Position numbers and translations under genes: made by a program. From contig CAXXKM010000003.1 in the NCBI GenBank assembly GCA_963664435.2, positions 1,152,001 to 1,216,000 on the forward strand: 64,000 nucleotides of DNA, in the 5' to 3' direction. The stretch's first letter is position 1. Each line of letters begins with the position of its first letter. Below are positions 10,371 through 60,681 of this stretch, piece after piece. This stretch comes from Longimicrobiales bacterium (lineage in GTDB: Bacteria; Gemmatimonadota; Gemmatimonadetes; Longimicrobiales; Gaopeijiaceae). The notes beneath the pieces were generated by a model, which had not been told where the DNA came from, searched no databases, and saw only the letters and a program-made list of their open reading frames with translations.

Positions 10371-10382
10371 CGCGAACGCCCC

Positions 10383-21467: not shown

Positions 21468-21497
21468 GCGCGCGATAAATCCCGTTATCGCGCGCAA
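21468..21497. repeat. lox/dif-like recombination site 2 (inverted relative to site 1)
   Basis: GCGCGCGATAA-ATCCCG-TTATCGCGCGCAA, the exact reverse complement of 20270-20299. Confidence 0.8.
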
Positions 21498-26018: not shown

Positions 26019-26092
26019 AGAGACAGACCAGTATGGACCGGAGCGAGCGGACCAAACACGTCGCTTTAGCATCCCTGGAAGGGGATGCTGCC

Positions 26093-28860: not shown

Positions 28861-28920
28861 CGTGCCTCCGTTGTGGTAACATAACATAACTTGACCGCAA
28901 CATAACACGCCGATGTGACG

Positions 28921-29650: not shown

Positions 29651-29679
29651 GAGCAGCGGGTTCCTGCTCAGCCATCGCG

Positions 29680-30238
29680 CGCTGGAAACCCTTCCGGAGG
29701 CGAGGGCGGTGGGTCGAGGCAGAGGTTCCCACGTGTTCCCGGTGCGCGGAAACCTGCTCTCTGTTACCGGCCATCCATTGACACTCCAATACTGCAATGT
29801 CCCGACTGCTCAAGAGCCTCGGGATCGGGGCCGCGCTGTACGGGTTCCGATCTTCGTTCCGGAACTGTGCGGAGGAGGAGCCTGACCACCCCCGCGAGAT
29901 GGCGGCGCCGGCACACTTGGTTCGCAACACCAAGTCGAGGCCGCCTGCCGGCGCGCGGACCGGTCGAGCGTCGGCGTCGGCTGGATGGACGGTTGGGCCA
30001 AGTGCATCGTCGGCGACGGAGGTCCGGGCGCTGGTGCGGTTCACCATCTGGGGTTGCCAGAAGGTGCTGGCCGCACGGGCCTGTTGCGGAGCACGATCTG
30101 TGTGCCGCTCGACCAGGACGCTTCCCCGGCCGGTCTCCCGAGGGCGGGCGCGCAGTCGGCTGGATCGAGTCGGAAGTGGACGAGTGGATCCGGGAGCGGA
30201 TCGACGAGAGCTGCGTCAGAGACCAGCGGCCAAGTTGA
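29680..30238 (+). pseudogene. Second P4-like integrase C-terminal remnant plus AlpA remnant
   Basis: LYGFRSSFRNCAEE..HPREMA; then GRFP...GGRAVGWIESEVDEWIRERI. Confidence 0.6.
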
Positions 30239-30313
30239 TCGTCGGCGCACCGCATCCTATCCTCTCCGTTCTCGAATCCTCTAGGCCGTTACCAACCCTA
30301 ATGGAGTCTACTA

Positions 30314-32047: not shown

Positions 32048-32050
32048 CCG

Positions 32051-33232: not shown

Positions 33233-33381
33233 CCGCTGAACTCCCACTATTCGACCCGATTCTCCCGCTGTTCGACCATGACAGACCCCGATCACGACTC
33301 TACGACAAAAACCGCAGATCGTGCAGTCGTGGTTAGACTTAGGCGGTTTCTTGCCACGGTACGCCCCCTTGGGAGGGGATT
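33233..33381 (+). repeat. Dispersed att-arm-like repeat, copy 1
   Basis: Aligns end to end with 50319-50467 (core GCAGATCGTGCAGTCGTGGTTAGACTTAGGCGGTTTCTTGCC), including the terminal GGGGATT. Confidence 0.85.
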
Positions 33382-33691
33382 ACCGTACTTGTACACGCCA
33401 AGAGATCCGCGTTGCCTCGATCAAATCCAGCATTCGCGCTTCTCTCAGCTCGGTCATCCCAAGCGCTGTCACGTGGACATCGAGGCCATAAAGCCTTGCC
33501 CCTAGCGCCTTCACAATCCGCGCTTTCCCTCGCCCGATTTTCTCCCACTCGATATCGTCGTGGTGGACCAACAGTAGATCGATGTCGTCGGGCAAATCGC
33601 ACTCAACCGCCGACCCAAACATGTAGACTGCGACGAATCCCCTCCAAAGGGACGTGTCCGCGCTTTTCACTGCCTCAAGTACCCAAGTCAT
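33380..33691 (-). CDS. Minimal nucleotidyltransferase (Pol-beta-like)
   Basis: YMFGSA...DDIDLLLV; ATGA-coupled to the upstream HNH gene. Confidence 0.75.
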   Translation of the reverse strand: MTWVLEAVKSADTSLWRGFVAVYMFGSAVECDLPDDIDLLLVHHDDIEWEKIGRGKARIVKALGARLYGLDVHVTALGMTELREARMLDLIEATRISWRVQVR

Positions 33692-34848
33692 CCGAACTCT
33701 CGTCGAACCCACGAAAAAAAGGACTGTTGGTTATGTAACACCACGTTACACGACTGAGCAAGCTTCCCTGCCGCCCTACTCACAGGTCCTCCATTCCAAT
33801 TGTGGAGATTTACAACTATGTCCGGATCAGAAACTAACAGCTCGTTCATGGTCGCCTCCGACAGGCAGTACTCATAGCATAAGGCCACGTCGTAACGGTT
33901 TCCCAAGTTAAGTTCCCATAGTCGGCGGGGATCCGGGGTCGTGTACTCCACCCCGCGACGGTACAACCAGCGCAGGACATATACCAATCCATCTAGTCTG
34001 AGTGATGTAGTTTTTGGACGGTAGAGTCTTTGATTGAAATACAACTGGTGAATTCGTGGTCGGTTCGCCAAGTTCAAGTCCTTGATCTCTTCACCATTTC
34101 TATAAGCAAGGGTTTGATCATGAACAAGCTCCAGATGTATGAATCTGCCCTGGCGGATAAGCCTTGCGATGAGATTCTGAAGGGCGGCGACAGACGGCGG
34201 TAGCGAACCGTCTGCGGTTGCGAGACCGAAAATGGAATTCAGCTCCGAAGGAAACAACGACAAGCGTATTGGAGATTCAGCGGAGCGTGTCGTAGCAAAC
34301 TCCTCAACATGAAGACGAAAAAACTCAACAATCTCTTGATTCTCGATGTGGAGTAGTGCTTTGTTCCGCGATAGCATCACAACAAGTCGTTCGTTGTTTG
34401 AAACCAACTCGTTTTCGAAGAGTTCCCATAACTCATGGCGATCGCTGGCCTGTGCGTGATCAGCGTTTGGACCATAGCTGGCGATAATCTGACCGTTTCG
34501 TCGGAGAAGAGGAGTAACGGCTTGTGCGAGATTAGAAAAGGAGGCGTATCTCACGGAGAATCGTGCCCGGATTTCCCGATTCCGATCGATTTTCCACTGC
34601 CGAAGGCGAGTTTGGATTTCGTCGGCCGGTTGCTGGTCAACAAAGGTGTGGCAGTTTGGACAGAGAATAATGAGGTTTTCGAGCGAATTATCGTTGCCGA
34701 TGCGATAGGGCTCGATATGGGCCTTGTGAGCGACCGTGCTATCAGACGGGAAGAGATCTTCGTGACAGGAGGGATTCATGCAATGACCCATGCATTCGCA
34801 CCACAAGCGGCGCCGAACGGAAGCTGGAACGGCTTTTCGGTTAGGCAT
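33688..34848 (-). CDS. HNH endonuclease with unrecognised C-terminal region
   Basis: CMNPSC...AHI...NLIILCPNCH. Confidence 0.82.
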   Translation of the reverse strand: MPNRKAVPASVRRRLWCECMGHCMNPSCHEDLFPSDSTVAHKAHIEPYRIGNDNSLENLIILCPNCHTFVDQQPADEIQTRLRQWKIDRNREIRARFSVRYASFSNLAQAVTPLLRRNGQIIASYGPNADHAQASDRHELWELFENELVSNNERLVVMLSRNKALLHIENQEIVEFFRLHVEEFATTRSAESPIRLSLFPSELNSIFGLATADGSLPPSVAALQNLIARLIRQGRFIHLELVHDQTLAYRNGEEIKDLNLANRPRIHQLYFNQRLYRPKTTSLRLDGLVYVLRWLYRRGVEYTTPDPRRLWELNLGNRYDVALCYEYCLSEATMNELLVSDPDIVVNLHNWNGGPVSRAAGKLAQSCNVVLHNQQSFFSWVRREFG

Positions 34849-35503
34849 GCGTTAAATCTCGACGACGCTAGGAGCGATGGCAAGATGCCTGGCACGAGGC
34901 ATTCCACGCCGACACACACCGAAAACAGGGGCTGGCGTGGAGGTGCTCAGGTCGCCGGATCGGTCACAACGGCCGCCGATCTCGGTGTCCGTCAGTGCCG
35001 GTGCGCTAACTGCTGCCCAGGCTGGGCCGAGTAGCTCAAAGGCGCCCGCACCCGTAGCCGAATACCCACGCCGCCTCCGCGACCTCCCGCCGGAATACCC
35101 GTCTGGAAGGCTCAGTCGCGGAACGAGGACCTCATGCCCGTGGGGAAGCCGCGGGATGCCAAAGCTGCCCAGTCAAAAGGGGACATCGTCGATTCCAGAA
35201 GCGGTCGCAGCGGCGACGGAGGAGGCCACGGCGTCCCCCCCTGAAGAGCTCTCGGGGACAACGAGACGCGGTGCTCCCGCCACGACGTGGCACGTCCTTC
35301 GGGCATCGTCCAAACCCGCCGATTCCAGGTCGATCTCCGCCCCCGCCACACGCACCTACCGGCTTCGACACGCCGCAGCACCACCATTCCAGCGTGAGTT
35401 TCGTGCTGAGGAGCGCGTCGGACGCGCTCAGCCGCACCAGGGCCACCGCAACCTCGCCGGGCGGCAAACTGATGCTGGACGCGAACGCCCCTGTTCGCGG
35501 GTG

Positions 35504-36385
35504 CTATTCTTTCAGACGCCACATTCCTTGAAGCCTCGACGCGTTTGACAATTGTCCATTGTCCAAACAGTGGACGAAGGTTCTTCGAGCAATCTCAAAA
35601 CTCTCGAAGAGCTGCTGTGCTGCCGGCGAACGGGATGCATGAGCAGAGCTACTGCGGGCTTCGTATAGCGATCTGATCCGCTGAAACAACCGCTCTCTTT
35701 CAGCACCCGCGGGTTCTAACAATGCGGCCAGCGAAGACGATAACTTCTTAGTGGTATCAGGTCGTCCCGGCTTAATAAGAGTCTCCACCGCTGCCCAAAT
35801 CACTATGATGGCGCTACCAGCCGAATGGGCCCATATGGCGCCGTCAAACGTCTGAAATGAGCGTCCGAACGCTTCATCATTCATGAGTTTGGAACCGGAG
35901 GCAAAAGCCTGCCGTACCCACAATAAGTGTCTCTTGTCGATTATCTTCGGCGGATCAGGTATGGTTAGTAACTGTCGAGGTAGTGTCTCTATCGGCCATA
36001 TGATGGGATCGACCCGAGCATCCTTAATGCCAGAAAGAGACGTGTCGGACACAACTGGCATCCTCAAGTTCGCACCAGTCGCTAGCCGTAGTAGCGCGAG
36101 TACCCACCATAGGGTATTGAGTCGGTCGAATCCCGTGGGGCGCACGCCCTCCCGCAATGCCACTTCGATCTCAAGGTCCAACCACTGTCCGCCTCGCGCC
36201 GATTTCCATGGACCTGGATGATGCTTGCTCGGATCTTCTGGTCGGGCGAAAGCTAGTATGTACGGCGACATGAGGTGAGCGTATGTCTGCCGAAGGACCA
36301 ACCCTTCACAGATCTCGAACACGTCCGTCCCGAGCTGAGCACCCGCCAGTCCGCCAAATAGTGGTGTCTCGGGGTTCTTGTCCAT
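35504..36385 (-). CDS. ApeA-like HEPN domain protein
   Basis: WAAVETL...RSLYEARSSSAH (Rx4H). Confidence 0.72.
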   Translation of the reverse strand: MDKNPETPLFGGLAGAQLGTDVFEICEGLVLRQTYAHLMSPYILAFARPEDPSKHHPGPWKSARGGQWLDLEIEVALREGVRPTGFDRLNTLWWVLALLRLATGANLRMPVVSDTSLSGIKDARVDPIIWPIETLPRQLLTIPDPPKIIDKRHLLWVRQAFASGSKLMNDEAFGRSFQTFDGAIWAHSAGSAIIVIWAAVETLIKPGRPDTTKKLSSSLAALLEPAGAERERLFQRIRSLYEARSSSAHASRSPAAQQLFESFEIARRTFVHCLDNGQLSNASRLQGMWRLKE

Positions 36386-36732
36386 TGGGTGCCAATCTCG
36401 CGACCGTAACCACCCCGATCTCACTCGAAGTGTCCGGTTATTCTCACTGGAAGTAGACACTTGATTCTCAGCAAAAGTGGCCACCGGAGCGGAGCGGCGT
36501 TTGGAGTGGTTGGCGGGCCTCCTTGAGGGTGGGTGACAGTGATGGCGTGGTGCGGGCACGGTCGCAAGTCGTGATTGCGGGCATGCCGTTGCTGGCGGAG
36601 CGGAGGTGTGCTTTCCCCATATTCTGTTCCCTGGAGGTGTGCGAACCTCGACGGTCGCAGCCCCTCGACGTGTCAAACTCGTCAAGGAGGCGCGCCAAAC
36701 CGTCTTCCATTAACATCGCGTCGCACCTCCGC

Positions 36733-37554
36733 TCATTCATCCAAGTTGCTCTCGGAGAATTCTAGCTGCTCCTCCTGGGGAATCCAGGAACCGACGTGTC
36801 CGGGTAGTCGCCGTGTCGAGCAGGGTGGGCAGTCGCAGTACCTGCCGCGAGTTGAACCAACGTGGACCAAGCCATGAATGACTCCGTCGTGTACGTCGAA
36901 ATGCTCGATAAGCTGTCGTACCAACCCGTGGTCGCGTCGCTCATACAACAGCCAAGTTGCGTGGGCAATGAAGTCGGCGGCCTGGAGCAATCGTGATTCC
37001 TTCATCGGGGCGAAATATGGAATGTCGGCAAGGTTATTGATCGAACCCCACTGGGTTCCACGGCGCCGAAACTCCCTCACCCAGAGCTTGGCGCGGGCGT
37101 CGAACCGGCCTTCAGAGAAGATCAGCAGCCCGCGTTGCGGATCACCGTGCTCCTGGTAGCGCCTCGTCAGGAAGGTGTCGAAGCGCTTGCAGACCTGTTC
37201 AGTAGCAACCTCGACGGCGCGGTCCGCGTAGAGCTCCGAGTCCTTCTCGATTGCCGCAGCGTAGAGCCTCAACCCGCCGTGGTCGTCGGTCGCGGTGACT
37301 GCGGCAATCACGTCGTCCAGGATTTCCTGTCGCTTTTCCTCGCTGACGCGACGCCAGAATCCTCGACCCGCTCGGATCGCCGATGCGTGAAACGGGATTG
37401 GTGGCCGGTTGGGGAAGTGCTCCTCCTGCACGCGCTCGAGCCGTTCATTCAGGTGGTGGATCTGACGCTCGAAGAGTGCCAAGCCGGCCAGCACGAAATA
37501 GCGATTACTTGGATCGTTCTCGTTCCCCGACTCGTCGAGATAGAGCAGGTACAT
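36733..37554 (-). CDS. DUF3800 family protein
   Basis: MYLLYLDESG N-terminus and LLQAADF C-terminal motif. Confidence 0.85.
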   Translation of the reverse strand: MYLLYLDESGNENDPSNRYFVLAGLALFERQIHHLNERLERVQEEHFPNRPPIPFHASAIRAGRGFWRRVSEEKRQEILDDVIAAVTATDDHGGLRLYAAAIEKDSELYADRAVEVATEQVCKRFDTFLTRRYQEHGDPQRGLLIFSEGRFDARAKLWVREFRRRGTQWGSINNLADIPYFAPMKESRLLQAADFIAHATWLLYERRDHGLVRQLIEHFDVHDGVIHGLVHVGSTRGRYCDCPPCSTRRLPGHVGSWIPQEEQLEFSESNLDE

Positions 37555-38195
37555 GCCCGAACTCCGGTTGACGGGTTGCGGCACCCGGCGGTAAGTTTGC
37601 GGTCATGCGACCGGCGCGGTTGCCTTAGCGACCCGACTGAACGGTTGCCTTGGGGCGGCGGTTCTCTCATGCGGTGAGAGGCCGCCGCCCCTCTTCTTCT
37701 CCAACATGGTGAATCCGTGCCGGGTGGTGAAGCCCGGATCGGATCCCAGCCACCCCGTTCCCCTTCTGGTCCCTGACCTCCGCCGAGAACTGCAAGGTGG
37801 CGGACGGGACGGTTAGCTGGGTCGTGGCTGAGTGGGGATCACAGCTGTCGCCGATGGGTGAAGTTCTTGGCCCAAGGACCTGCCAGGCAGTCCTCGCGCG
37901 CATAGACTTCTGCGGTCGGTTGACCTGCGCGATGCCAGATCGGTTCTGCCGAGGCGGCGGAGCGGTCTGGGAGATGCGCGGATTTCGTAAACAACGAAGT
38001 TCGCAGGTCAGGGGAAGTCGGGAACCGCGTGGTCATCATGGCGTTGACCGAGGGGCTGCCGACCTTTGGGGCGGCTTCGAAGAACCACGGCAGCCTTGCC
38101 GAAGACCGTCTCGTACCGGCCAGCCTCTCGCCGGTGGAGGGCACGGCTCCTTGATTCCGTCGCACCGGTACTCTGTGAGGGGCAGTGTAAACGGT

Positions 38196-38330
38196 CCGCC
38201 AAATGCCCGCCATTTGAACCGATTTTCCCGCCATTTGAGCACGACAGGCCCGGTCACGGCCTCCCGGCAAGAACGGCAGATCGTGCAGTCCTGATTGACT
38301 TTAGACGATTTCTTGCCGAGATTCACGCGA
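38196..38330 (+). repeat. Dispersed att-arm-like repeat, copy 2
   Basis: CCCGCCATTTG twice, then GAGCACGACAGGCCCG...GGCAAGAACGGCAGATCGTGCAGTCCTG...TTAGACGATTTCTTGCCG. Confidence 0.85.
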
Positions 38331-38620
38331 TCTTCGGGACACCTGTGCAGCGTGCGGTCAGTCGGGTGGGGCTGGAGGACATGGGCGTGTCCATGGGATG
38401 CCCCGCGGCGAATGGCACCCCTAGTTGAGGGAAGTCTGACCGGTCGTATGTGCCAGCGGACGGGCATTACCTTTCATCGGATCCTCGGCATCCGCAGCAA
38501 GTGGGCGACCGTTAGGGGAAGGAATCGAATGATGGCGCGAACGAAACGGGTCCGGCACCGTACAAGCACCCCGCCGAGGATGTCCGCGTCCCCGGGCGGC
38601 TGTGAAGCAGGGAATCTCGG

Positions 38621-39403
38621 ATGCGACTCATCAGGGGGTGGGAACGCCGGTACCTCCCGGATGAGATTGGCGGGGTGCGGCTTAGCAAGGCACGGCGGTA
38701 CAGAGAAATTGGCGAAGAGGACGGGATAGGAGACAGCAGGGAAGGCGAGATTCGGGTGAGAGTGCCTGTCAACGTATCGGTGGGCGAAGCCGTCTCTGAA
38801 CCGAGGCCGGAGGACGCGACTGACGGCGACGGGACCGAGCACGGCGAACAGCATCTGGAACCGTCGGACACGGACGACGATTTGCTCGTCGAGCTGAGAT
38901 CGCAAGACGGCGGAGAGTGGGAGGGAGTTCAGCACCTCAGGGTTGACGACGGCAATCTCGATAGCCCGTTTCTCTTCTGTCTGTCGCGCGAGCCGACTAC
39001 GCGGGCCGACTGGATGAGAATGCGAGAGGCGCTACCGGAGCGGTACGACGTCTGGACCGTAACGGACGACGTTCACCGGCTGAAGTTTGAAATCGAGTGT
39101 GGGCTGAAACGATGGATGGGGATGAACGAGATCACGGAGCACGAAATACGAACGCGCAGGGGGTTCGTGTCCTACCCATACGACTCAGTGCCCCTGAGCC
39201 GTGAGCTTCGCGAAGTGGCTGAGGAAGAAGTGCATCGAATGACTAGGTGGTTCAGGAAGAGAAGGAAGTACAGGGATCAGGAGGAGTACCGGCTCGCGTG
39301 GCTTCTGAGAAGCCCGCAATGGGGCAGAATGCCCGATTGTATCGACATCGAGTTGACTAGAACGGGAATCGGCTTGTTCCAACCGTGGACGCCGCCCAAG
39401 TAG
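38621..39403 (+). CDS. Hypothetical protein
   Basis: 260-aa ORF with FLFCLS and FRKRRKYRDQEEYRL motifs, loosely DUF2971-like. Confidence 0.6.
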   Translation: MRLIRGWERRYLPDEIGGVRLSKARRYREIGEEDGIGDSREGEIRVRVPVNVSVGEAVSEPRPEDATDGDGTEHGEQHLEPSDTDDDLLVELRSQDGGEWEGVQHLRVDDGNLDSPFLFCLSREPTTRADWMRMREALPERYDVWTVTDDVHRLKFEIECGLKRWMGMNEITEHEIRTRRGFVSYPYDSVPLSRELREVAEEEVHRMTRWFRKRRKYRDQEEYRLAWLLRSPQWGRMPDCIDIELTRTGIGLFQPWTPPK

Positions 39404-39750
39404 CGACACCGACTCCTCAGCAGCGAAGGACCAGGGGGTGCTCACCGGGCGATCTGCCTAGAAGCCGTCTCCACACGACATCCGGTCTTGCCACCACATC
39501 CGCAGTGCCGTCGAGGTCGAAGTCCGCGAAACCGTCATCCAGGGGCCGAGCAGGCTGTCCCTCCAGCGTTCTTCAGTACCCATTCGCTCCGGAACGCGGG
39601 CGGATGCGCAACGAATCGAGCAAAGGGGTTATCTTGCGGCCACCCGGTCATCCTTGGCGGGGGGCGGGCCAAGGGAAGGACACCCAACCGGATGGAAAGG
39701 GACCGAGCCGGAGCGTGAGCATGGAACCGAAAGGGGCGGAGGACTACCGC

Positions 39751-40890
39751 ATGGTGGCCTTCAAGAAGCGCCTCCAATTGCCGGATCGCGGTCCGGACGA
39801 CGCGCAGGTCGGACCGGCTCGGATGGTCGATATTGAAGGACGCTGTGCAGACTGCTGGGGTCCAATCGTCGGAGCAATCGACGCGAACGGGAGTTGGATC
39901 GGCATAGCGTGTCGGATGTGTGGACGGAGCGTTGACGCGGACGAAGCCGAGCAGGAAGAGAATAGGATGTTGCGCGAGGCGGAGCGCAACATGCCGAGGG
40001 TGCGCGTCGGTAGGGGAGCCGAGTACGACGAGAAGGCGAGATTCGTGCTGAAGATCCTGCCGGACATGGACAGGGAAAGGGCCGAGTTCGGCGACCGTGT
40101 TGAGAACGCCAAGCGGAAAGCTCACCAGAAGTCACGAGGGGGACCGTTGACTCGGCGGGACTTTCCCGAGGGCACACCTGGCCATCTGTACTTGCAGGCT
40201 TGCGCGCTGGTGTCCGCGCTTGGTGTCCTTCCCCGCGACATGTCGGCAATCTCACTCTCGGACTTCGACTTCGAGAATCCGGCCAGCGATGCTAGTGAGC
40301 CGAGGGTGGATGCGGGTGGTCGCGTGCAGAGGTCGGTCCAGATCCCCAGAAAACAGTCTAGCATCGGACAGCTGGTGCAACGGATGGGCACGGCCCTCGT
40401 CGCCGGATTCGCGGCGGCGTTCGCGTGTGAGGTCGGCATGAAGGCACTTCTCCTGACGCGCCTTGACGAGGCGGCGAGGACGCACGATCTGCTAAGGCTC
40501 TACGAATCGCTTCCAGCGGACTGCCGGGAGAGGCTCCAAGCAGACTTCGGCGAAATCGTCGACGTCATGGCCGAATACCGGCACGCCTTCGGGAAGTGGC
40601 GGTACTTTGATTCGACCGCTGGCCAGAAGGCGATTTCGGCGCTTGTGGACGTGGACCGGACATGGGGACTCGGAAGAGCGGCACGGGTGATCGTTGACGA
40701 GGGAGTGATCGCCGGTTTGCAGTACGACATCGAATTGAAATACGAGCTTGATGTCCAAGCCAATCCTCATGTGGATGAGGACGGCAATGTCACGATTCGC
40801 CGAGACGACGTGACCGCTGCGACGAGGGTCGCGCTGGGAATAGGTGGGCACGAAGCTGCGATCCCTTGGGACGCGATCTTGTCGATCTGA
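39751..40890 (+). CDS. Zn-ribbon plus HEPN-like domain protein
   Basis: CADC...CRMC; AFACEVGMKALL...THDLLRLYESL...WRY; GGAGGA RBS. Confidence 0.6.
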   Translation: MVAFKKRLQLPDRGPDDAQVGPARMVDIEGRCADCWGPIVGAIDANGSWIGIACRMCGRSVDADEAEQEENRMLREAERNMPRVRVGRGAEYDEKARFVLKILPDMDRERAEFGDRVENAKRKAHQKSRGGPLTRRDFPEGTPGHLYLQACALVSALGVLPRDMSAISLSDFDFENPASDASEPRVDAGGRVQRSVQIPRKQSSIGQLVQRMGTALVAGFAAAFACEVGMKALLLTRLDEAARTHDLLRLYESLPADCRERLQADFGEIVDVMAEYRHAFGKWRYFDSTAGQKAISALVDVDRTWGLGRAARVIVDEGVIAGLQYDIELKYELDVQANPHVDEDGNVTIRRDDVTAATRVALGIGGHEAAIPWDAILSI

Positions 40891-41134
40891 TCGAGACCAG
40901 TGCGAAGGCGACCGCGGCTTCGGAAGCCGTCCACCGGATCGGCACCGAGTTTCCGAAGACTGGAGGTGGACTGCTCGTCAGGAGGTCCGGTCACTGCTCG
41001 TATCCCGTGGAACAGGGCCAAATGCTTCGAAGGCACCGAACGGCCCTTGGCGACGGTGGTTTGTGGGTCACGTCCGGCAGGCCGATTGAACCGGGCTCAG
41101 GACCACGGTCCACCATGGCGGTGGATTCGATGCG

Positions 41135-41215
41135 AGCCGGCGTCATGGACCGACGGCAAGAAGGCAGATCGTTCAGCCCCAGTTGCACTTAGACGATTTG
41201 CTACCCCGAATCGCG
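41135..41215 (+). repeat. Dispersed att-arm-like repeat, copy 3 (degenerate, partial)
   Basis: ACGGCAAGAAGGCAGATCGTTCAGCCCCAGTTGCACTTAGACGATTT. Confidence 0.7.
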
Positions 41216-41373
41216 TCACCGGGGCGGTCGCCGCAGGACATCGTCGGACCAAGCAGCGGCGGAGGGAACTTGGGTCGACACCTGTTGCCTGGCGCCAGCC
41301 TATCGTTTCCATTGGTTGCGGCAGTAATCCCAGTCGAACCGACCCTCCCGGAGAGGTGTTGCCTCAATCACGT

Positions 41374-43548
41374 ATGTCTAGTTCGCCCGATCCGTCCAAG
41401 TCCGCCGATGGCCAACACGTAACGGAGCGTACCGAGGGAGAGCTCACGTTCACCGTCGACTCACGGCTGCTCGAGGAGCTTGGAGAGCGACTCGTGGGCA
41501 AGCCCTCGATGGCGTTGGCTGAACTCGTGAAGAACTCCTACGACGCCGATGCCGAGACGGTGCGGATAGCACTGGACCCATACGAACCCGGCCGCATCCT
41601 GATCGAGGACGACGGACACGGGATGACGACGGAGGAATTCGAAAGGTACTGGATGAGGGTCGGGTCTCAGCATAAGCGAGATCAGAAACGGTCCAGGAAG
41701 TTCCGCCGGCCCTTCACCGGCTCAAAGGGCATTGGGCGCATCGCCACCCAGATGCTCTCGAAGAGTCTGCGGCTCATATCGGTCAACGAAGCTACTCCGA
41801 CACGGCGCATCCTGGCCCACCTGGAGTGGGCCACGGCCATCGCGACCGGGGAACTGGTCAACGTTGTCGTGGGAATCACGCACGAACGGCTCAGCCATCC
41901 TCAGGATCACGGTACTACGATCATCCTCGAAGGTCTCCATCACGAATGGTCGGAGGCCACCCTTCGTGATTTGGCTGCAGAGATCTGGCAGCTCCAGTCA
42001 CCGTTCGGACGGCTCGTAGACGACGCCGAGGAAGCAGGCGGTGACTTCGATGTTCGATTGTCTGGCGTGGAAGAGTCACATGAAACTGCGTTCCGAGAAC
42101 AAATGTCGGCAATCCTTGGTCTTTGGACGGCGAGAGCCGTGGGGGAGGTACGCGACGGAGAATTCGCGATGTCCCTCCAATTCAGGGGTGAAGAACCGAT
42201 CACTTTCCCGCCAGCAAGAAAGGTCTCTGTGAACCAAGCGCACTTCGAGCTGCGCTTCTACGAGTTGGCGGGACGGCAACCGTTGGGGATACGCGTGCAG
42301 GATGCTCGCGATTATCTCAGGGAATACGGCGGCGTACACATATATGACACCGGCTTCCGCCTGCCATTCTATGGCGAAAAGGACAACGATTGGCTCCTAA
42401 TCAGCTACGACATGTCTCGCCGAGTAACCCTGTCTGAGCTTCTCCCGTCGGAAATAAAGCAGATCAAACGCGGTATGCTCTCATTGCCCCAGTGGAACCA
42501 GGTGCTCGGTGCTGTAGAGATCAACACCGCTGTCGAACCCCAGTTGGAAGTCACCATTACACGAGACCGGCTAGTTGCGACGGGCGCGTTCCGGGAGCTC
42601 AGAGATTCGGTCCGCCAAGCCATTCATTGGTACGCAAATGAAAAGGCGCGGCGTCGGCTGGCGGACGAGCTTGCCGCGGGCCCGCTACCTGTGGCGATCC
42701 CTTCCGGCGATTTCCACGAGGCCCTAGACAAAGCTCGTCCACACTTGTCGGTGGATATCGCTGCAGACCTCGAGGATGCATACACGGAGAGCATTGAAGC
42801 TGGTAGGCGCGTAACCGAGGAGGCGGAGAGACGGGCGTCAGCGTTAGGTGCGTTCGCAACCGCTGGCATTGCCGCCATTGGCTACCAGCATGAACTCGGC
42901 AGGCAGCTTCTTCTGATCGAACACCTTGCAGAGGTTCTGCCCCAAGCCGGTGGTGATGACGCGGACGTAATGAGCGAACTCGTCGGATTTCAGCGCAAGT
43001 TGCGCCAGATCGTGAAGAGGACTCGCGAGATCGGTATGCTCTTTTCGCATCTTGTCGACCATGAGAACGTCGAGGAGGTGAGGACTTTTTCGGCCAATAG
43101 GACAGTGGAGGGTATCGTACAGCAAGTCGCCTCCATTCAGCCGGAAGTAGTGTTCGATCTCTCGGGGATCGACCCCAACCTTCGTCTCCCTCCAGCGGCG
43201 TATGCTGAGTGGGTGTCGATCTTCCAGAATGCTCTTTTCAACTCGCTCAATGCGCTAGTCGACTCTGAGGAACGAGCAATCGTGGTTAGGAGCGAAGTCG
43301 CAGGCAATCTCCGACGGATCGTGATTGAGGACACAGGCAGCGGAATCGACCTTGAAGAGAGTGAGATGCTGTTCGAGCCATTCAAGCGCGGGATCACGAT
43401 CAGCAGCGAACGACGAGAGTTAGGTTTCGGTGGGTCGGGCCTGGGGTTGACGATCATGCGAATCTTGGCCGGACGTCGGGGTGTACGGGTTGGCTTCGAG
43501 TCTCCATCTTTCGGGTTTGCGACAGCACTCGTGCTGGAATGGTCGTAG
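41374..43548 (+). CDS. GHKL (MORC/HATPase_c_3-like) ATPase fused to a histidine-kinase module
   Basis: ELVKNSYDADA, DDGHGM, GSKGIGR; C-terminal QHEL, NSLNAL, DTGSGI, FEPF, GSGLGL. Confidence 0.85.
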   Translation: MSSSPDPSKSADGQHVTERTEGELTFTVDSRLLEELGERLVGKPSMALAELVKNSYDADAETVRIALDPYEPGRILIEDDGHGMTTEEFERYWMRVGSQHKRDQKRSRKFRRPFTGSKGIGRIATQMLSKSLRLISVNEATPTRRILAHLEWATAIATGELVNVVVGITHERLSHPQDHGTTIILEGLHHEWSEATLRDLAAEIWQLQSPFGRLVDDAEEAGGDFDVRLSGVEESHETAFREQMSAILGLWTARAVGEVRDGEFAMSLQFRGEEPITFPPARKVSVNQAHFELRFYELAGRQPLGIRVQDARDYLREYGGVHIYDTGFRLPFYGEKDNDWLLISYDMSRRVTLSELLPSEIKQIKRGMLSLPQWNQVLGAVEINTAVEPQLEVTITRDRLVATGAFRELRDSVRQAIHWYANEKARRRLADELAAGPLPVAIPSGDFHEALDKARPHLSVDIAADLEDAYTESIEAGRRVTEEAERRASALGAFATAGIAAIGYQHELGRQLLLIEHLAEVLPQAGGDDADVMSELVGFQRKLRQIVKRTREIGMLFSHLVDHENVEEVRTFSANRTVEGIVQQVASIQPEVVFDLSGIDPNLRLPPAAYAEWVSIFQNALFNSLNALVDSEERAIVVRSEVAGNLRRIVIEDTGSGIDLEESEMLFEPFKRGITISSERRELGFGGSGLGLTIMRILAGRRGVRVGFESPSFGFATALVLEWS

Positions 43549-43559
43549 GAGGCAGAAGG

Positions 43560-44729
43560 ATGCTACACATCTTGGTCGTTGACGATAATGCCGACTTGGT
43601 TGACGCGATGCGGACGAAGGTTGAGAGCGCTGTTAGAAGTCGGGCCAACGTCACCACCCTCACTGGAGCTGTCCTCAAAAAGGCGATTCGTCAACTCCGG
43701 CGGAGGGAAAGCAATTGGGACGCCAAGGATCGCTGGAGGCCACGGAAATACAACGCCCACTTCGATTCAGCAGACATCCTGGTCCTTGACTACCGGCTTG
43801 CGGATCTCTATGGGCCGGATGGATACATGACCGGAGAGGACCTGGCTGCACTGGCTCGGCGCTATTCGACGGCGGGGCCAATTGTGTCGGTGAATCGGTT
43901 TGGCGAGCAGAGCTTCGACTTGCGGCTCCGTCCCGAAACGCAGACATGGGCGGAGGTAAGCGTTGCGCACGAAGACCTTCGGAACCCACGTCTTTGGTCA
44001 GCTGGCGCGGACGGGCCGTACCGTCCTTGGGGATGGTCTTCGCTTGATCATCTTCCCGAATTGTTCGACCGACGCATGAAGCATGCTCTGAGGCATTTCG
44101 ACAGTTCGGTTGCCAAGTCGCTCGGTATCTCACAGACGCAGTTGGATCTCATGCCGCGGAAGATCAGCGAGTCCCTAGGAGATGATCCGTTCCGCATCAC
44201 ATTCAGGGAAGTCGCGCTGCAGCGGGCGTTTCCGTCCGATAATGTGCCGAAGCCCTCGCGACCACAAATGGCGAGGGTGGCTGCAGCGGAAGTAGGGAAG
44301 TGGTTATCCCATAGCGTGTTGCCCGGGCAGGAAATCCTAATCGACGCGCCGCATCTTGCGACGCAGTACCCGAGCTTGGTGAAGGGTCGACGGACGCAGG
44401 CGCGGCTCAACCAACTAGCCCGGATGACTCCGAGCGCTGATCTCCCCCTGGACACGACGCGTATCAAGGGCGCCCGACTTCGACCTGGCTTCTGGCTTGA
44501 CCGGCCAGCTTGGTGGACGGAGGCCGTACTCGAGAATCGAGAGCTTCCTGAGAACCGAAGGCCGTGGGAAAGAACACCGCTGGCCTACCGATTTGCAGAA
44601 GATACTTCGCAGTTCCATACACCAGCCGAATGTCGGACTTTCCAAGCCGTTGGGATGTTTGGCAAGCGCTACGTATGCGTACCAAATGACACTATCACAT
44701 ATAAGCCCGCCAATCGACTGCTCGGTTAA
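43560..44729 (+). CDS. Receiver-domain protein with unrecognised C-terminal domain
   Basis: HILVVDD...DILVLDYRL...TG receiver pattern; follows the kinase gene. Confidence 0.72.
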   Translation: MLHILVVDDNADLVDAMRTKVESAVRSRANVTTLTGAVLKKAIRQLRRRESNWDAKDRWRPRKYNAHFDSADILVLDYRLADLYGPDGYMTGEDLAALARRYSTAGPIVSVNRFGEQSFDLRLRPETQTWAEVSVAHEDLRNPRLWSAGADGPYRPWGWSSLDHLPELFDRRMKHALRHFDSSVAKSLGISQTQLDLMPRKISESLGDDPFRITFREVALQRAFPSDNVPKPSRPQMARVAAAEVGKWLSHSVLPGQEILIDAPHLATQYPSLVKGRRTQARLNQLARMTPSADLPLDTTRIKGARLRPGFWLDRPAWWTEAVLENRELPENRRPWERTPLAYRFAEDTSQFHTPAECRTFQAVGMFGKRYVCVPNDTITYKPANRLLG

Positions 44730-44731
44730 GA

Positions 44732-45412
44732 GTGCAAACTGTGAATAGCGACTATATGAGACTCCGCGCGGCGCTGTTGGTAATTGCCGCTGTCTCGGAC
44801 CGAGAATGGCGAAGTAAGGAGCAATATCCACTCCGTGGTCCTTTCACGCATTTAGATCGCGAGTTGCTGGAAAAGCAGTTGCCGGAGACCGACCATACGA
44901 TAAAAATTCCGCTTCCGACGATAACTAATCGCTTGTTCCTTCTCCCACCAACTGGCGACTCAGTGTGTGCTCTTCTCGCTGTCAACTGGGAGTTTGCTTC
45001 GGACGACGAGGGATCCGACCGGCTCAAGGAACAGCGGAATCCAGATGACACAAGATATATCAGTCGTGCCTTTAGGGTATTCCTAATGCCGACCGATTCG
45101 GCCACAGACGTAGCACCCACGGTCTTCCGTTTTGATGAGAAAGAGGACGACGACTGGTGCTTCGCCCACGCGCAACTCTGCGACAGAGTGACACCGTATG
45201 GTGGTTATTTTGACGATACGGCTTCAACGGACTGGCTTTCAGCGAGGCTGCCGCGCATTCCATTGGCAGCTACTCAGAGACCGGCGCCAATCTTTGTATG
45301 TTTGCTTGCCAGTCTCTATGGGATCGATAACCGACTCTTGCGCAGGGTCCTACAAGCGCTGGCCGACAGAGAATCGCACGGTGTCGCGCAGAAACTCAGT
45401 TGTGGGAAATGA
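44732..45412 (+). CDS. Hypothetical protein, third gene of the kinase operon
   Basis: FRFD...HAQL...PRIPL pattern, loosely DUF2290-like. Confidence 0.55.
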   Translation: MQTVNSDYMRLRAALLVIAAVSDREWRSKEQYPLRGPFTHLDRELLEKQLPETDHTIKIPLPTITNRLFLLPPTGDSVCALLAVNWEFASDDEGSDRLKEQRNPDDTRYISRAFRVFLMPTDSATDVAPTVFRFDEKEDDDWCFAHAQLCDRVTPYGGYFDDTASTDWLSARLPRIPLAATQRPAPIFVCLLASLYGIDNRLLRRVLQALADRESHGVAQKLSCGK

Positions 45413-45660
45413 CGGCGGCGTCAGCGAACGGAATCTACGCAGCTATCGTACTGCTTCCACAAAGTCGATTCCGTCCGAGGGAAGGACGGCCGTCAACGGG
45501 AACGGCGGGCGGTGCCGGTCGCTGTTGTCCGCGCGGCGACAACGAGAACGCGACAGTGCGCCTCGGATAGACAGGCCAGACAGCCGAAACGAAGAGATGG
45601 ATCTCTCCTGGTGTTTTCCGGCGGGAAAGGGGAACTGTAAGCCTAACGATGGCCGTTATC

Positions 45661-47307
45661 TCACCGGGACGGTCGACGCCACTCAATGAGCTTGGAGCGG
45701 GCGCGTTGGAGCATGTCAATCTCTTGCTTCCCAAGGCCAAGTCCGGCCCGTAGAACCCGTTCGTCTGCAAGTCGCCTGGCTTCCTCTTCCTCACCTCTCC
45801 GAAGCAAGACATCTAGGTCGTGGAACCTATCTTCCGAACCTGCTACTATCGGTACGGGGGTCCGCTTCAGAGTGCCCGGCTCGATCTTCAATACTCCCCC
45901 GCCGTAGCGCCGCCCCGCGAGCTCCGCCCACGCCGCGACCGCGCTCGTGAGAAAGCCGACCGCCACGGCTTCCGGTGTAACTTTCACGTCGTTTCGCCAG
46001 GTGAGGCTGTGGACGGCATTGGTGTTCAGGCATTCTCCCCGGTTGAGGACCAGTAGCGGTGAACCGGCTCGTGCACAGGTGGCGAACGCGTTGGGCGGTG
46101 ACGGGATATCAACACGAAACCACTCCTTTCGGATGGTGCATTTGTGGCGTTCTTCGATACCCATGTCACGGCCTTCCTGAATCCACGGTTCGACGCGGCG
46201 ATCCTCGCTGGCACCTTCTGGGCGCACAAGTAACGCGGCGAATCCGGCATCCAAGAACGTGTCGTGGTCTTCTTCTGTGTACTCCAGGCCCTTCAGCCAT
46301 CTTGTTCGAGGCACGATGCGATGGCGAACACCTTGCGGCAATCCTAAGGCATCCAAGTCGGTGGCGGAGCGGATGAAATGGCGGTTGGCCCCGGTGACTA
46401 CACCGATTCTTATGTCCGCGACGTCACTCAGGCGTCTCACCGCACAACTTTCGTCGAGTCGGCCGAGGACCGAGACGACGGCCGCACCGATCTTGCCAAA
46501 CGCAGTTGGAAAGCGATAGGAGAGTTGGCTTTCGTCGGAATCGGGATGCTCCAGGACCGACTGGAGTTCCTCAACAGAGTCCACCGTCGACGTTAGGACA
46601 TCTCCGCTTTCGCCAAACCCGGAGCACGCCACTGCAACCACTGCCTCGTCCGTCCCCGCAAACATGCGGTCTCGGACGTACACCAGGAGAGTCCTCCTGA
46701 ATCTACTCGCTAGTGCTTGTCTCAGCGGTGCGCCGTAGTTCGTTTGGAGGATGGCTTCCGGGACCAACATGGCAAGCCGACCTCCGAGGGAAAGGAATCT
46801 GAGAGCGTGAAGGAGGAAATACGCCCATAGGCTGGCGGTTGCAGGGAGCGGAATCGTCGAGTCGGCCGCTGCAGCGCGGGCGGACTCCAATTGGTCGCCC
46901 TTGATCCAGTGGTGCCGGACGTACGGTGGGTTACCGACAATGGCCGCGTACGGGGCGCCAGGAAGATCGGTTGGCGACGCCTTCAAGAAGTCGCCTTGGT
47001 AGCAGTTGGCCTCGACCAACCGCTCGCTGCGCCGAACGGTGTCGACGCAATGCGGATCGATCTCGACGCCGTATACTCGCTGCCCTGCCTTCGAAGCATC
47101 CAGCTCCGAGAGGATCCGCACAGCTGCCTCTAGGAAGGCGCAACCCCCATAGCTTGGGTCAAGTACCGGCCCGCGCCCGTCGGCCAAGGCCCATCTCACC
47201 ATCACGGACGCCAAGTCATCGGGAGTGTAGTAGACGCCGAAGAGGCGTCGGGGACTGATGTCGTCCCCGTCCCGGGATTCGCGAGATGAGAGGGGGGCCG
47301 TGCCCAT
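45661..47307 (-). CDS. N6-adenine DNA methyltransferase (gamma class)
   Basis: GVYYTP, VLDPSYGGCAFL, GVEID, IVGNPPY, GRRYGGGVLKIEP. Confidence 0.9.
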   Translation of the reverse strand: MGTAPLSSRESRDGDDISPRRLFGVYYTPDDLASVMVRWALADGRGPVLDPSYGGCAFLEAAVRILSELDASKAGQRVYGVEIDPHCVDTVRRSERLVEANCYQGDFLKASPTDLPGAPYAAIVGNPPYVRHHWIKGDQLESARAAAADSTIPLPATASLWAYFLLHALRFLSLGGRLAMLVPEAILQTNYGAPLRQALASRFRRTLLVYVRDRMFAGTDEAVVAVACSGFGESGDVLTSTVDSVEELQSVLEHPDSDESQLSYRFPTAFGKIGAAVVSVLGRLDESCAVRRLSDVADIRIGVVTGANRHFIRSATDLDALGLPQGVRHRIVPRTRWLKGLEYTEEDHDTFLDAGFAALLVRPEGASEDRRVEPWIQEGRDMGIEERHKCTIRKEWFRVDIPSPPNAFATCARAGSPLLVLNRGECLNTNAVHSLTWRNDVKVTPEAVAVGFLTSAVAAWAELAGRRYGGGVLKIEPGTLKRTPVPIVAGSEDRFHDLDVLLRRGEEEEARRLADERVLRAGLGLGKQEIDMLQRARSKLIEWRRPSR

Positions 47308-47799
47308 GATCCTCCTTCAGGTTGCTGATCCTCTTCGAGCAGAGAAATGTCCTACCCCTGAATCTACACCCCGTTGCAACATGAGGCCTTCGGCTGAGCC
47401 GTCACAGCACCACTGGCAGGCACGGGACGGGCAACCAGATCGTGACCGGCGGGGCGGGACAAGGGCCGATGCAGTCAGTTCTCGGTTACGTCATACCGGA
47501 TGAGCGCCCCGCCGGTGAAGGATACGGCTCCTCCATGCCGTCGCACCGGTACCCCTGTGAAGGGCAGCGTCAACGGTCGCCCATTGCCCTCCGCTGATCC
47601 AGCGGAGTCGGCGGACACTACGATGTGCCTTGGTGTGTCGCATAAGGGCTGTATCGCTGCGTAGTGGGCTCCTCGCCGCCACTTGGGCGGCGTAGGAAAC
47701 CGGGCGGTGCTGCGCGCCAGCGCAGTCCGCGGCTTGTCGGGAGTGACCAGGTGCGGGTCGTGCGAAGAACTCTACTTGGGTATTGAGTCCGAGTGCGCG

Positions 47800-47917
47800 G
47801 GTTCCCGCCATTTGATGGCGATTCTCCCGCAATTCGCGCACGGTAGAAGCCGCTACGGCCCAACGGCAAGAAACGCAGATCGTGCAGTCCTCGTTGAACT
47901 TAAGAGGTCTCATGCCG
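47800..47917 (+). repeat. Dispersed att-arm-like repeat, copy 4
   Basis: TTCCCGCCATTTG...CTCCCGCAATTCG...ACGGCAAGAAACGCAGATCGTGCAGTCCTCGTTGAACTTAAG. Confidence 0.8.
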
Positions 47918-48099
47918 TCATTTGGCGGCTCGGGTCCTCCGCACGGTATTCACCCGACACCCGACACCCGACCTCACCGAGGTCAGGCCTACGCTGCTTT
48001 CTTCACCTCCTTGCTGCCTGAGGACTAGCGTGTGCGCTTCCGGGCAATCCCAGCCTTGAAGACCACGTAGGGCGTCCTCCCCCTTCATGCCGCGGCCCT

Positions 48100-48595
48100 G
48101 TGCCGACGCCGTCGGTTGTAGGTCTCAAGATAGGCATCCAGGTCCTTCTGCATCTCCTCGACGGTCTTGTACCAGGTCGTGCGCTCCTTATAGTCCTCCC
48201 GATCTCTCTGGACAGTAGCTTGGCAACCCTTCCGGGGTCCAGGGGAAAGGGGCACGGGATGTCTCGGAGTACGGAAGAACAGGATTCGGCGAAATACCGC
48301 GGTCGGGTTGGAAGGTCTGCCGAAGCGGTGGAGCGCCCAGCGGAAGGCCGAGGTGGGTAATTGCGACTGCTGCGCGGGGAGGACTATCGGCGAGGGGAGC
48401 CGGGAGATTCGGGTTGGTCCGCCGGAGTTGGAGCGGCGGCGGCGGGAATTCCTGGAAAGCGGTCAGCCGGGTCTCAAGAAGAAGAACCGGCCGGGAGGCG
48501 AGCTGATGCGGACCCGGGCGAAGCTGGGAGAGATGACGATGCGGGTCGAGTTGCAGGTGGAGCTTCTCTCCCGTGATTCGCGCCTCAGGTGGCCC
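48100..48595 (+). pseudogene. IS transposase OrfA remnant (IS3-like)
   Basis: PKRWSAQRKAEV...REFLESG...RAKLGEMTMRVEL, frameshifted and truncated. Confidence 0.6.
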
Positions 48596-48597
48596 AC

Positions 48598-49992
48598 CTA
48601 GTCGCTGGGTGCATCTAGAATGAGACCGTCCCAATCTTCGACTTGGCCCTCGTGGATTACACGCAGGATTGCCCTCCGGCAGAGCTGCTGGGCGTCCGCG
48701 AGCAGAGAGCGGTCGTTGTGTTTCGACTTTCCTCCGTGGACAAGGCGGGAGGCGGCAGCGTATGCGCCGCGCAGGATCCTCCAAGCCTCGCGCCGGTCAG
48801 CAGCGTTCTCGCCGAGAAGCCAAGCCCCCCGAGCTGCAAGGGTGTAGCTCAACTGCTGATTCGTCCCTTCGGACAACAGCAGCGCTTCGAGTGCGATGCG
48901 GAGGTCAATCAACTGATCGGTGATTTCGGCGTAGGGGGTCAGCGATTTCTTCCAACGCGCCGCAGCAAGTCGCGTTCGGGCATCTGTATGGTCTAGCGCC
49001 GCGAGAAGCCTGCCAATCCTCGTTTTCGAGGGAGCGGGCGCCGCGCCATCGACAGGTTGGAGTGTTTTCACACCCGTCTCAAGGCTGAGGCTCCATCCGG
49101 AAGCTGGATCGATCGAGCGACTAGGTGTCCCCCAGGTCGTCCCGTTGTCCGCTATTGCCGACACGCCTCCGTAATCGTTCCACCCAAAACTCAGAGGGAT
49201 GTCGGCGTTGCACTCTAACGCCAGGGCCAAGCCGATGGTGTCGAAGCCGCCACATCGCGGAGCCAGCGCAGCGGTGACAACGCCGTTGAGGTCGTCGACA
49301 TTCGGGCGGAACAGGGCAGGCTCCGCCGTGGTCGCGACCTGAACGACAGACCGTCCCAAGTAGGTTTCAGCCTGGATGCCGCCCGAGGGAAGCCGCTTGG
49401 AAAGCGAGTCCGAAGACAGCGGCAGCGGGACGATGTCGATCCCGTCAATCGGAGTCATGGCTTGAGCGAGCCTGAGCGCCGCGACCCGGCAGGTGCGATA
49501 CTTCATGGGATCGCCACGGATCCAACCCGCGATGAGGTCGGTAACTCGGTCGACGCCAAGAATCGCCGCATCCTTGATCAAGGCTTCACCGAATTGCTCG
49601 ATCGACGAAACTGAAGCTTGGACGTGGAGACCGTTCGGTAACAACACGGACGCGCTTCTGCCATTTCCAGCTATCGGAAGAGCGTGTCCGACGCAGTCCG
49701 AAGCCGGATCGACGTAGCCTGACAGTGCCTCGCGCACACTACCCATCAGGTTGGTTCGGAGCGTCTCTGGCATGGAGACGCGGGCGTTTCTGATCATGGT
49801 CAGTGCTTGGCCGTGCCACGTTGCTCGTTCGTAGGCTCCACGCAGATTCTCGGCATCAATGCTCTCATCGGGACCGTGGCCGTAGCTCGTGCTGTGGAGC
49901 CCGTGGTGCTTGATCATGCGGCCCATGTCAAACGACGTCGCCGCCAACGCCCGACGCAAAGAAGTCCTGAGGTCTTGGACTGCGTTGGTCAT
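48598..49992 (-). CDS. HEPN domain protein (ApeA-like C-terminus)
   Basis: DLRIALEALL...YTLAARGAWLLG...AYAAASRLVHGG. Confidence 0.72.
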   Translation of the reverse strand: MTNAVQDLRTSLRRALAATSFDMGRMIKHHGLHSTSYGHGPDESIDAENLRGAYERATWHGQALTMIRNARVSMPETLRTNLMGSVREALSGYVDPASDCVGHALPIAGNGRSASVLLPNGLHVQASVSSIEQFGEALIKDAAILGVDRVTDLIAGWIRGDPMKYRTCRVAALRLAQAMTPIDGIDIVPLPLSSDSLSKRLPSGGIQAETYLGRSVVQVATTAEPALFRPNVDDLNGVVTAALAPRCGGFDTIGLALALECNADIPLSFGWNDYGGVSAIADNGTTWGTPSRSIDPASGWSLSLETGVKTLQPVDGAAPAPSKTRIGRLLAALDHTDARTRLAAARWKKSLTPYAEITDQLIDLRIALEALLLSEGTNQQLSYTLAARGAWLLGENAADRREAWRILRGAYAAASRLVHGGKSKHNDRSLLADAQQLCRRAILRVIHEGQVEDWDGLILDAPSD

Positions 49993-50318
49993 ATGGGTCG
50001 TGGGCTAGGAGTCGGCGCTTGGAAAGCCGCGATCATCTTGCGAGGCCCCCCAGGAGGCCATGAAGGGGCCGGCCGTAGGCTGCACTCGCCCTTCGTGAGC
50101 CCTTGGTCACACATCGAAACAGGAATCGTGCTCCACGAGCCTTTGACGCCTTTCGTACCCCTCGGCTGGCGTAACGTCTTACGAAACTCCGCCGGACGAC
50201 GCACTCCAACTCTGCATGAATTGGGTGATGTCTCATGAAGATCGTGAACCTCTCCGCCGCGTTCTCGCCGTCCTTGTAAGCCTTACCGTCCGATCCAGCA
50301 GTCCGTCCCCCTCCGGTC

Positions 50319-50465
50319 CCGCTAAACTCCCGCTATTCGACCCGGTTTTCACGCTTTTCGAGCACGACAGGCCCGATCACAGTCTCACGGCAAGAACGGC
50401 AGATCGCGCAGTCCTGGTTAGACTTAGACGATTTCTTGCCGGGATTCGCATCCCCTCTCAGGGGA
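50319..50465 (+). repeat. Terminal arm of the ICE (repeat copy 5), abutting the right att site
   Basis: Same repeat family, directly followed by the 43-bp att core. Confidence 0.85.
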
Positions 50466-50508
50466 TTGTAAGGCAGGCGCTCTGAACCAACTGAGCTAAG
50501 CGCCCCGC
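50466..50508 (+). repeat. att site, right copy (displaced 5' half of tRNA-Val)
   Basis: Identical to 301-343. Confidence 0.92.
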
Positions 50509-60678: not shown

Positions 60679-60681
60679 CTC

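Follow-up and report, generated by a model that had tools for sequence, protein, structure and literature searches.

Stacked attachment-site arms of several target types among the predicted defence cargo of an integrative and conjugative element from a Longimicrobiales bacterium

Background

Tandem accretion and deletion in the elements related to ICESt1 and ICESt3 were reportedly described by Pavlovic in 2004 and by Bellanger in 2011. An account of tandems formed by integrative and conjugative elements (ICEs), integrative and mobilizable elements and cis-mobilizable elements (CIMEs) states, in the part drawn on here, that an incoming element integrates beside or within a decayed resident, and mentions chimeric attI sites, integrase-less remnants and gene capture (PMC5704250). 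Portions of further papers indicate that comparable steps of accretion and exchange occur in SXT hybrids (PMC5812530), and that both the accretion of defence genes on ICEs (PMC10201445) and phage-ICE tandems (PMC13651849) are already known. The assembly of defence islands is usually inferred from the clustering of genes. In the 64,000-nucleotide stretch of Longimicrobiales DNA analysed here (the window; contig CAXXKM010000003.1, positions 1,152,001 to 1,216,000) we describe an ICE in which each layer of cargo bears a typed end mark of 145 bp, namely a non-coding repeat that appears to be one arm of the attachment (att) site of a family of sibling elements.

Five arm copies of several target types

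An exact 43-bp direct repeat (301-343 and 50466-50508) bounds the ICE within tRNA-Val(TAC) (266-340, minus strand, called by ARAGORN), the 5' half of this tRNA being provided by the element. The left core (301-343, plus strand) comprises the 7-bp overlap TTGTAAG of the anticodon loop and a tRNA 5' half, and the right core (50466-50508, plus strand) the same overlap and the original tRNA-Val 5' half. The original prediction had reported five same-orientation non-coding copies of a repeat near the right end, and all five are present on the plus strand, at 33233-33379, 38196-38342, 41141-41230, 47800-47942 and 50319-50465. As had also been noted, the last copy directly adjoins the right core at 50466, and copy 1 tracks it through GGGGATT, with the stop codon of a cargo open reading frame (ORF; 33380-33712, minus strand) at 33380-33382. 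The paired motifs about 21 bp apart that had been seen in four copies correspond to CCCGC pairs spaced by 21-22 bp in copies 1, 2, 4 and 5; such pairs occur as direct repeats in both the left-arm and the right-arm alignments. The similar pair noted beside the integrase does exist, as TTCCCGCT in the left arm (344-390, plus strand), but at positions 372 and 385, with a spacing of 13 bp; these are predicted arm-type sites.

The window arms are mutually 55-77% alike and resemble the arms of elements with tRNA-Val, tRNA-Ile and IS481-family insertion sequence (IS) targets, the nearest-arm identities of copies 1-4 being 0.80, 0.86, 0.72 and 0.92. Copy 1 (tip GGGGA) is of the tRNA-Val type, its nearest arms being Val-type terminal arms (0.77-0.80). 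Copy 2 (tip GGGACAC) is of the tRNA-Ile type (nearest Ile-type arms 0.85-0.86), copy 3 has decayed to the point that both its 5' half and the arm-site pair are gone (profile positions 51-124, E 2e-12), and copy 4 finds its closest match, at 92% identity, in the terminal arm of a co-resident ICE directed at IS481 ends. The terminal right arm is of the tRNA-Val type (0.92 to the terminal arm of the relative G001). Given this degree of mutual likeness and the different target types, the copies are neither serial duplicates nor, as had been proposed, copies of the ICE's own terminal arm; their sources are siblings that represent at least three target types.

In copies 1, 2 and 4 the arm stops at the crossover register, and a target half-site can be recognised there. 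Copy 1 is followed by the overlap TTACCGT, which is the IS481-type overlap reversed, and then, in reverse orientation, by the outer inverted-repeat tip of an IS481-family element (33380-33395, plus strand), the same tip being found on an intact IS end in the relative G154. Copy 2 is followed by the overlap CTGTGCA at 38343 and then by a GCGTGCG half-site, as after Ile-type terminal arms. Copy 4 is joined to the overlap ACGGTAT, an inner IS481 end and a 3' remnant of the transposase (47943-48229, plus strand), and IS481-family ends are also the target of two other ICEs in the same genome. The tip beside copy 1 and the inner end beside copy 4 may be a single IS end that was split and inverted. 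All four inner overlaps (TTACCGT, CTGTGCA, CCGCAGG and ACGGTAT) are unlike the left overlap TTGTAAG. A search of the window recovered no left arm within the ICE, so that the intervals retain right arms only and no attL plus attR remnants, and it recovered no internal chimeric attI, in which an overlap would link a right arm to a left arm. A remnant of an integrase start, with ribosome-binding site and about 8 codons, is present in opposite orientation at 38517-38558 (listed on the plus strand; E 1.5e-7).

A genome-wide arm family paired with integrases

An iterated profile of the arm detected 48 copies on three contigs of the genome (G000, contigs C1 to C3), 43 of which lie outside the window ICE, and none in the reversed genome. 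A tblastn search with the integrase gave 33 matches in the genome, mostly near full length and about 70% identical, and a second profile identified 30 left arms, nearly all of them behind integrase stop codons. An exact 7-bp direct repeat at a fixed register links 26 of these 30 left arms to a right arm, with 20 different 7-mers in all. This fixed distance to an overlap that recurs at the other end, together with the direct-repeat motifs on both arms, is what the att arm of a heterobivalent tyrosine integrase should show. For this pairing 49 combinations were geometrically possible, 4 of the 26 pairs assume joined contig ends, and when the windows are shifted as a control, 0-1 of the 26 pairs agree. 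Pairs are defined by identity of the 7-mer, and mismatched pairs would thus be counted among the unpaired arms, which make up 20 of the 46 scorable right arms and include four in the window ICE. A common core-site motif is retained at the crossover register by 9 of 19 unpaired arms, against a background of 30/598 (5%).

Three components recur in the right arm: the CCCGC pair, also found after integrase stops; a 16-mer, also found before integrase starts; and a short core-type motif ahead of the overlap. The 16-mer GCAGATCGTGCAGTCC stands ahead of the integrase start of the window ICE at 1578-1593 (minus strand) and is a predicted regulator or Xis site; of its 78 matches, right arms account for 45, the regions upstream of integrases for 26 and other places for 7. 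Arm-type, core-type and regulator roles are predicted for these motifs from lambda-type att sites. Among 40 relatives, arm and integrase occur together in 18, neither in 21 and a distant integrase alone in one; the arm was not found in G008, which has no integrase of this family. Across 8 genomes, which are related and hence not independent, arm and integrase counts track each other (Spearman 0.93). The repeat thus appears to be the integrase-distal att arm of a tyrosine-integrase element family with about 30 members, in keeping with the earlier suggestion of an integrase-linked att arm. It had also been proposed to check whether the repeat is confined to this ICE family, and stated that a genome-wide spread unrelated to att sites would speak against such arms. 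It is indeed spread through the genome, but its copies lie at att sites and are not like repetitive extragenic palindromes (REPs) or miniature inverted-repeat transposable elements (MITEs).

In seven genomes, adjacent arms within 15 kb and with no integrase between them are in the same orientation in 36 pairs and in opposite orientation in 12 (210 of 227 arm matches, the weakest dropped; some pairs are the ends of nested whole elements), and no run in this survey is longer than the five arms of the window. As a group, the natural integrases of this one genome use 20 different 7-bp overlaps, which include anticodon loops of tRNAs, in either orientation, as well as ends of IS481. They bear on how integrases change their targets and on retargetable integration tools.

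Several further loci of this genome deserve mention. Two ICEs (C1:704740-736240 and C3:540430-583620) have integrated, with overlap ACGGTAA, inside the inverted repeat at the end of an IS481-family element, and a small literature search turned up no paper on ICE integration at such a site. For several other members the target is a palindrome that occurs dispersed and has the overlap CGTTACG or CGTAACG (C1:1349-1471 kb, C2:286-316 kb, C2:831-843 kb and C3:403-410 kb), and for others it is the palindrome TCTGCC-ATTTT-GGCAGA. The segment C3:705225-713701 lies between two outward-facing right arms, lacks an integrase and encodes a protein with carboxypeptidase-regulatory repeats as well as a metallophosphoesterase paired with an AAA ATPase, while C3:622877-632645 has three same-orientation arms, again with no integrase, around helicase and DUF6361 genes. 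The arm at C3:1132119 has a near-identical copy at the contig end (C3:1792052), possibly an assembly duplicate.

Multi-arm islands and preserved intermediates in relatives

Seven tRNA-Val islands, that of the window among them, were picked by best arm or integrase similarity and are not a random sample. At least three same-orientation arms, with different cargo in each case, are present in 6 of the 7 islands; the counts are five in the window, four in G005, four in G155 (two of them partial), three in G001 and in G152, three distal arms in G154 and one in G153. The G005 cargo includes a short prokaryotic Argonaute with ubiquitin-like genes, a TIR domain gene with a membrane protein gene, and QatA/C/D, and that of G001 a type I restriction-modification system and QatABCD; in both, the Qat genes occupy single intervals. 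Similarly, a DISARM system exactly occupies the last interval of G152. Of the interval proteins scanned, 12 of 32 have a PADLOC match at 1e-25, and other intervals hold ISs, leucine-rich repeat genes or unknown genes; defence cargo is common in the intervals and not universal.

Some relatives also have internal junctions between a right and a left arm. At the G154 junction a right arm is followed by the overlap, a tRNA 5' half, a left arm and a 34-codon integrase stub, beyond which lie 14 kb of cargo and a terminal arm. In G152 and G009 an internal arm is joined to a tRNA-Ile half and a left arm, with no integrase, and a further junction of this kind, attP-like and with the right arm joined to a left arm plus integrase, lies in a composite element of the window's own genome (C3:719-954). 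G005 also contains a second ICE, nested with the same orientation inside a resident integrase gene. By their layout, the G154 and G152 junctions appear to be the predicted intermediates of accretion, and with such intermediates kept in relatives the assembly becomes readable junction by junction and testable. How similar the integrases are depends on the target (identities of 82% for Val, 85-91% for Ile and 98% for IS481), which does not hold for VirB4. Several of the inner arms seen in relatives are truncated. In the terminal region of L186 in G155, an inverted partial arm takes the place of the tRNA half next to the last arm, and that tRNA half lies about 47 kb further out.

Origin of the inner arms

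We favour, with a probability of roughly three in four, the explanation that the inner copies are fossil attR junctions, left behind when sibling elements entered the ICE and subsequently lost their redundant left arm, integrase and backbone. The relict att character proposed in the original prediction is thereby supported, and the recurrence in relatives of multi-arm tails with other defence cargo is consistent with it. Entry would have occurred in tandem at the tRNA, nested at the element's own target within cargo, or by homologous recombination, and the ensuing deletions would leave a right arm with its cargo block, so that each surviving interval would represent the distal cargo of a former element. 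The integrase presumably made the inner junctions, and the order of events in the ICE is likewise a reconstruction. The surviving arms would share one orientation because direct repeats delete, whereas inverted ones invert or stay whole. Given that the inner overlaps differ from TTGTAAG, that intact elements carry identical 7-mers at their ends and that the mv4 integrase needs overlap identity, the inner arms probably do not support excision.

The behaviour of cargo at the arms is mixed in this respect. The DUF3800 block recurs at C1:441.7-442.9 kb (87%) in a shared stretch that ends 6 bp into another arm, which favours modules bounded by arms and agrees with the boundaries originally proposed. 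Interval 4 (48186-50152), which is 94% identical to part of the tRNA-Val ICE of G155, does not agree: this homology breaks at an IS3 end that lies about 250 bp beyond arm 4, and not at the arm. This break is one of several points that weigh against the fossil-junction explanation. A contig from run X2 matches 38518-40348 only and ends away from the arms. The G153 island and the tRNA-Ile ICE of G011 have a single arm each, and copy 3 lacks a recognisable target. Arm decay follows no simple gradient along copies 1-4, and growth was therefore not strictly ordered from one end. The junctions at copies 1 and 2 match the target of their type in the first 2-3 overlap bases only, and if overlaps must be identical, these junctions call for either a rare event across mismatches or a donor as yet unseen. 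The gapped identity profile across the arm tips is uninformative at a background of about 0.55. Junction formation was not observed: the contigs of four read sets, a form of data that drops rare forms, contain no arm-to-arm deletion, and those of 4 runs no attP or circle junction, positions 351-480 in the left arm being uncovered there. The X1 joints 37747-50352 and 38298-50434 had been candidate deletions and are explained by paralogous arms instead; the inserted letters of the former match the copy at C1:441.7 kb.

The partial match at copies 1 and 2 is also what one would expect were the inner arms live alternative attR sites, from which a mismatch-tolerant integrase excises modules with 0-4 cassettes and swaps them with siblings, making the array integron-like in function. 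Arms 1, 2 and 4 are of full length and keep their motifs, in PAISt an internal site permits modular excision according to part of PMC4057263, and IntDOT, in the portion of its literature consulted, recombines despite heterology. Set against this are the decay of copy 3, the truncated inner arms of relatives and the identical 7-mers at both ends of all 26 paired elements, which fit a strict identity requirement as in mv4 Int, although the pairing was itself defined by identity; we thus consider such live sites unlikely. The broader proposition that the inner arms are usable, with an integrase shared in trans by about 30 siblings, excision at any of the five right arms and defence blocks grafted between targets, seems rather unlikely as well; if true, it would amount to a genome-wide integron-like cassette economy on att arms instead of attC sites.

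An explanation that dispenses with the integrase would make the inner arms by-products of RecA-type exchange among co-resident elements, with arms and integrase starts acting as patches of homology. The mosaic backbone, which has a break close to where the integrase starts, the hybrid ends in G010 and the stop of the DUF3800 homology 6 bp into an arm are all compatible with it, as is the origin of SXT/R391 hybrids by homologous exchange (PMC5812530, in part). Homologous exchange alone would not, however, join arms 1, 2 and 4 to half-sites at a 7-bp register, and a partly run check of that register gave the excess of core-site motifs in unpaired arms mentioned above. As a full account we regard it as quite improbable, but RecA-type exchange likely contributes to the deletion step and to that extent overlaps with the fossil-junction explanation. 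The notion that a dispersed MITE- or REP-like repeat or a structured non-coding RNA (ncRNA) gathers in islands can point to the copy number on three contigs and to a local hairpin in copies 2 and 5. The fold z-scores of +0.4 to -1.5 are nonetheless not significant, the covariation check that had been proposed gave no conserved hairpin (consensus energy -2.4 kcal/mol, 1 of 6 pairs compensatory), Rfam has no match to the repeat, and sigma-70-like promoters number 0 against 4.2 expected. Together with the absence of the arm from the integrase-less G008, the fixed 7-bp pairing with integrase ends largely refutes this notion, which we consider hardly credible.

Backbone, cargo and surroundings of the ICE

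The integrase (391-1557, minus strand) is a tyrosine recombinase of 388 aa (Pfam PF00589) in which R234, K261, H331, R334, W355 and Y365 are invariant in 9/9 aligned sequences; its matches to lambda Int are weak (E 0.004), and its relatives come mostly from metagenome-assembled genomes of Longimicrobiales/Gemmatimonadota. The backbone (1554-17000, minus strand) encodes an xis-like ORF, ArdC, a type IV coupling protein, VirB11/8/6/10/9/4/3/2 and AlpA. The element is an ICE by its integrase with a flanking att repeat, its VirB2/3/4/6/8/9/10/11-like type IV secretion system and its TrwB/TraG coupling protein; no relaxase was identified, the candidate ORF 2286-3470 having no Pfam or NCBIfam match. 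The backbone is 89-100% identical to that of two co-resident ICEs whose integrases are only 73-78% identical to the window's, and end modules therefore appear to have been swapped between elements. The high backbone identity may reflect gene conversion and not nesting. A second, unrelated tyrosine recombinase at 20270-21497, flanked by a perfect 30-bp inverted repeat, is also present in sibling ICEs. A sponge metagenome is among the sequencing runs containing the window stretch; runs with a share of 0.06 were left out of the habitat evidence.

The intervals hold 1-4 genes each, plus IS remnants, on both strands. Interval 1 (33380-37584, minus strand) encodes a nucleotidyltransferase-like ORF, an HNH protein, an Apea-like HEPN protein and DUF3800, and interval 2 (38621-40890, plus strand) an unknown 260-aa gene and a HEPN protein. 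Interval 3 (41374-47307) has a HATPase/histidine kinase fusion, a receiver-like protein and an unknown gene on the plus strand and a type II N6 methyltransferase on the minus strand, and interval 4 (both strands) an IS3-like remnant and an Apea-like HEPN gene (48598-49926, minus strand). Of the cargo originally named, HNH (Pfam 1.8e-6), DUF3800, the kinase and the methyltransferase are confirmed; the nucleotidyltransferase call is weak (Polbeta E 0.023), and the two Apea-like HEPN calls are based on ESM Atlas feature matches (0.97 and 0.96), with no Pfam match. One of the two genes of interval 2 that had been taken as unknown (39715-40890) clears the Pfam HEPN cut-off. Extra defence cargo inward of arm 1 (24289-33130) comprises GmrSD-N with HEPN, an OLD/Gabija-like ATPase and McrBC.

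Just beyond the ICE lies a CRISPR-Cas locus (53796-63600) with GSU0054, Cas3, Cas4, Cas1, Cas2 and at least 33 repeats, which we take to be of type I-G/I-U. At the other end of the ICE (window 1-600 and C3:1131978-1152265), two family members stand head to head in opposite orientations at one tRNA-Val anticodon loop, the window ICE rebuilding the 5' half of the tRNA and its neighbour the 3' half. The central tRNA is inverted in G005 and G155. In Islander a 5' fragment is recorded for 159/3919 islands.

Comparison with known systems

In integrons, repeats separate the cargo downstream of an integrase, the system consisting of IntI, attI and attC. The window resembles them in that repeats part defence cargo downstream of an integrase. 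It differs from them in all three features of an integron: its integrase scores 17.8 bits against a TIGR02249 cut-off of 265 and is not of the IntI type, its arms have no attC-like hairpin or common crossover sequence, and single-gene cassettes are replaced by multi-gene blocks in both orientations, with no shuffling junctions seen. To judge from the sequence, the architecture is not an integron, and with differing overlaps and no arm-to-arm deletion in the four read sets, the integron-like growth mode of the original prediction seems overstated.

With the mv4 phage integrase the family would share, going by part of 10.1101/2023.11.06.565760, a specificity set by identity of the 7-bp overlap and tolerant core sites; mv4, however, is one phage with one tRNA target, whereas here a natural radiation of overlaps is known from sequence alone. 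PAISt of Streptomyces turgidiscabies similarly has an internal recombination site in an ICE, which in the portion of PMC4057263 consulted is an 8-bp site equal to its ends and shown to be active, whereas the inner overlaps of the window all differ. The ssrA islands of Dehalococcoides, as described in part of PMC3146451, likewise stand in tandem, with repeated end marks, many without an integration module and each with its own cargo, but have a serine recombinase, a single target and 20-bp repeats in place of a tyrosine integrase, many targets and 145-bp arms. The closest correspondence is to ICESt1 and the CIMEs, for the entry and decay steps proposed here follow the accretion scheme given in part of PMC5704250. 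As far as that part describes them, those elements have one common att site, whereas arms of several target types are stacked here up to five deep, and about 30 members with 20 overlaps occupy one genome. Unlike in CIMEs, the left arms are mostly lost and the intervals are not bounded by attL and attR, so that this is no strict CIME array. Literature searches, with most subscription papers and supplements outside their coverage, returned nothing relevant on the element family or on stacked relict arms. The principle of accretion is already known, and the stacked typed arms are a recurring architecture that represents a variant of this known process.

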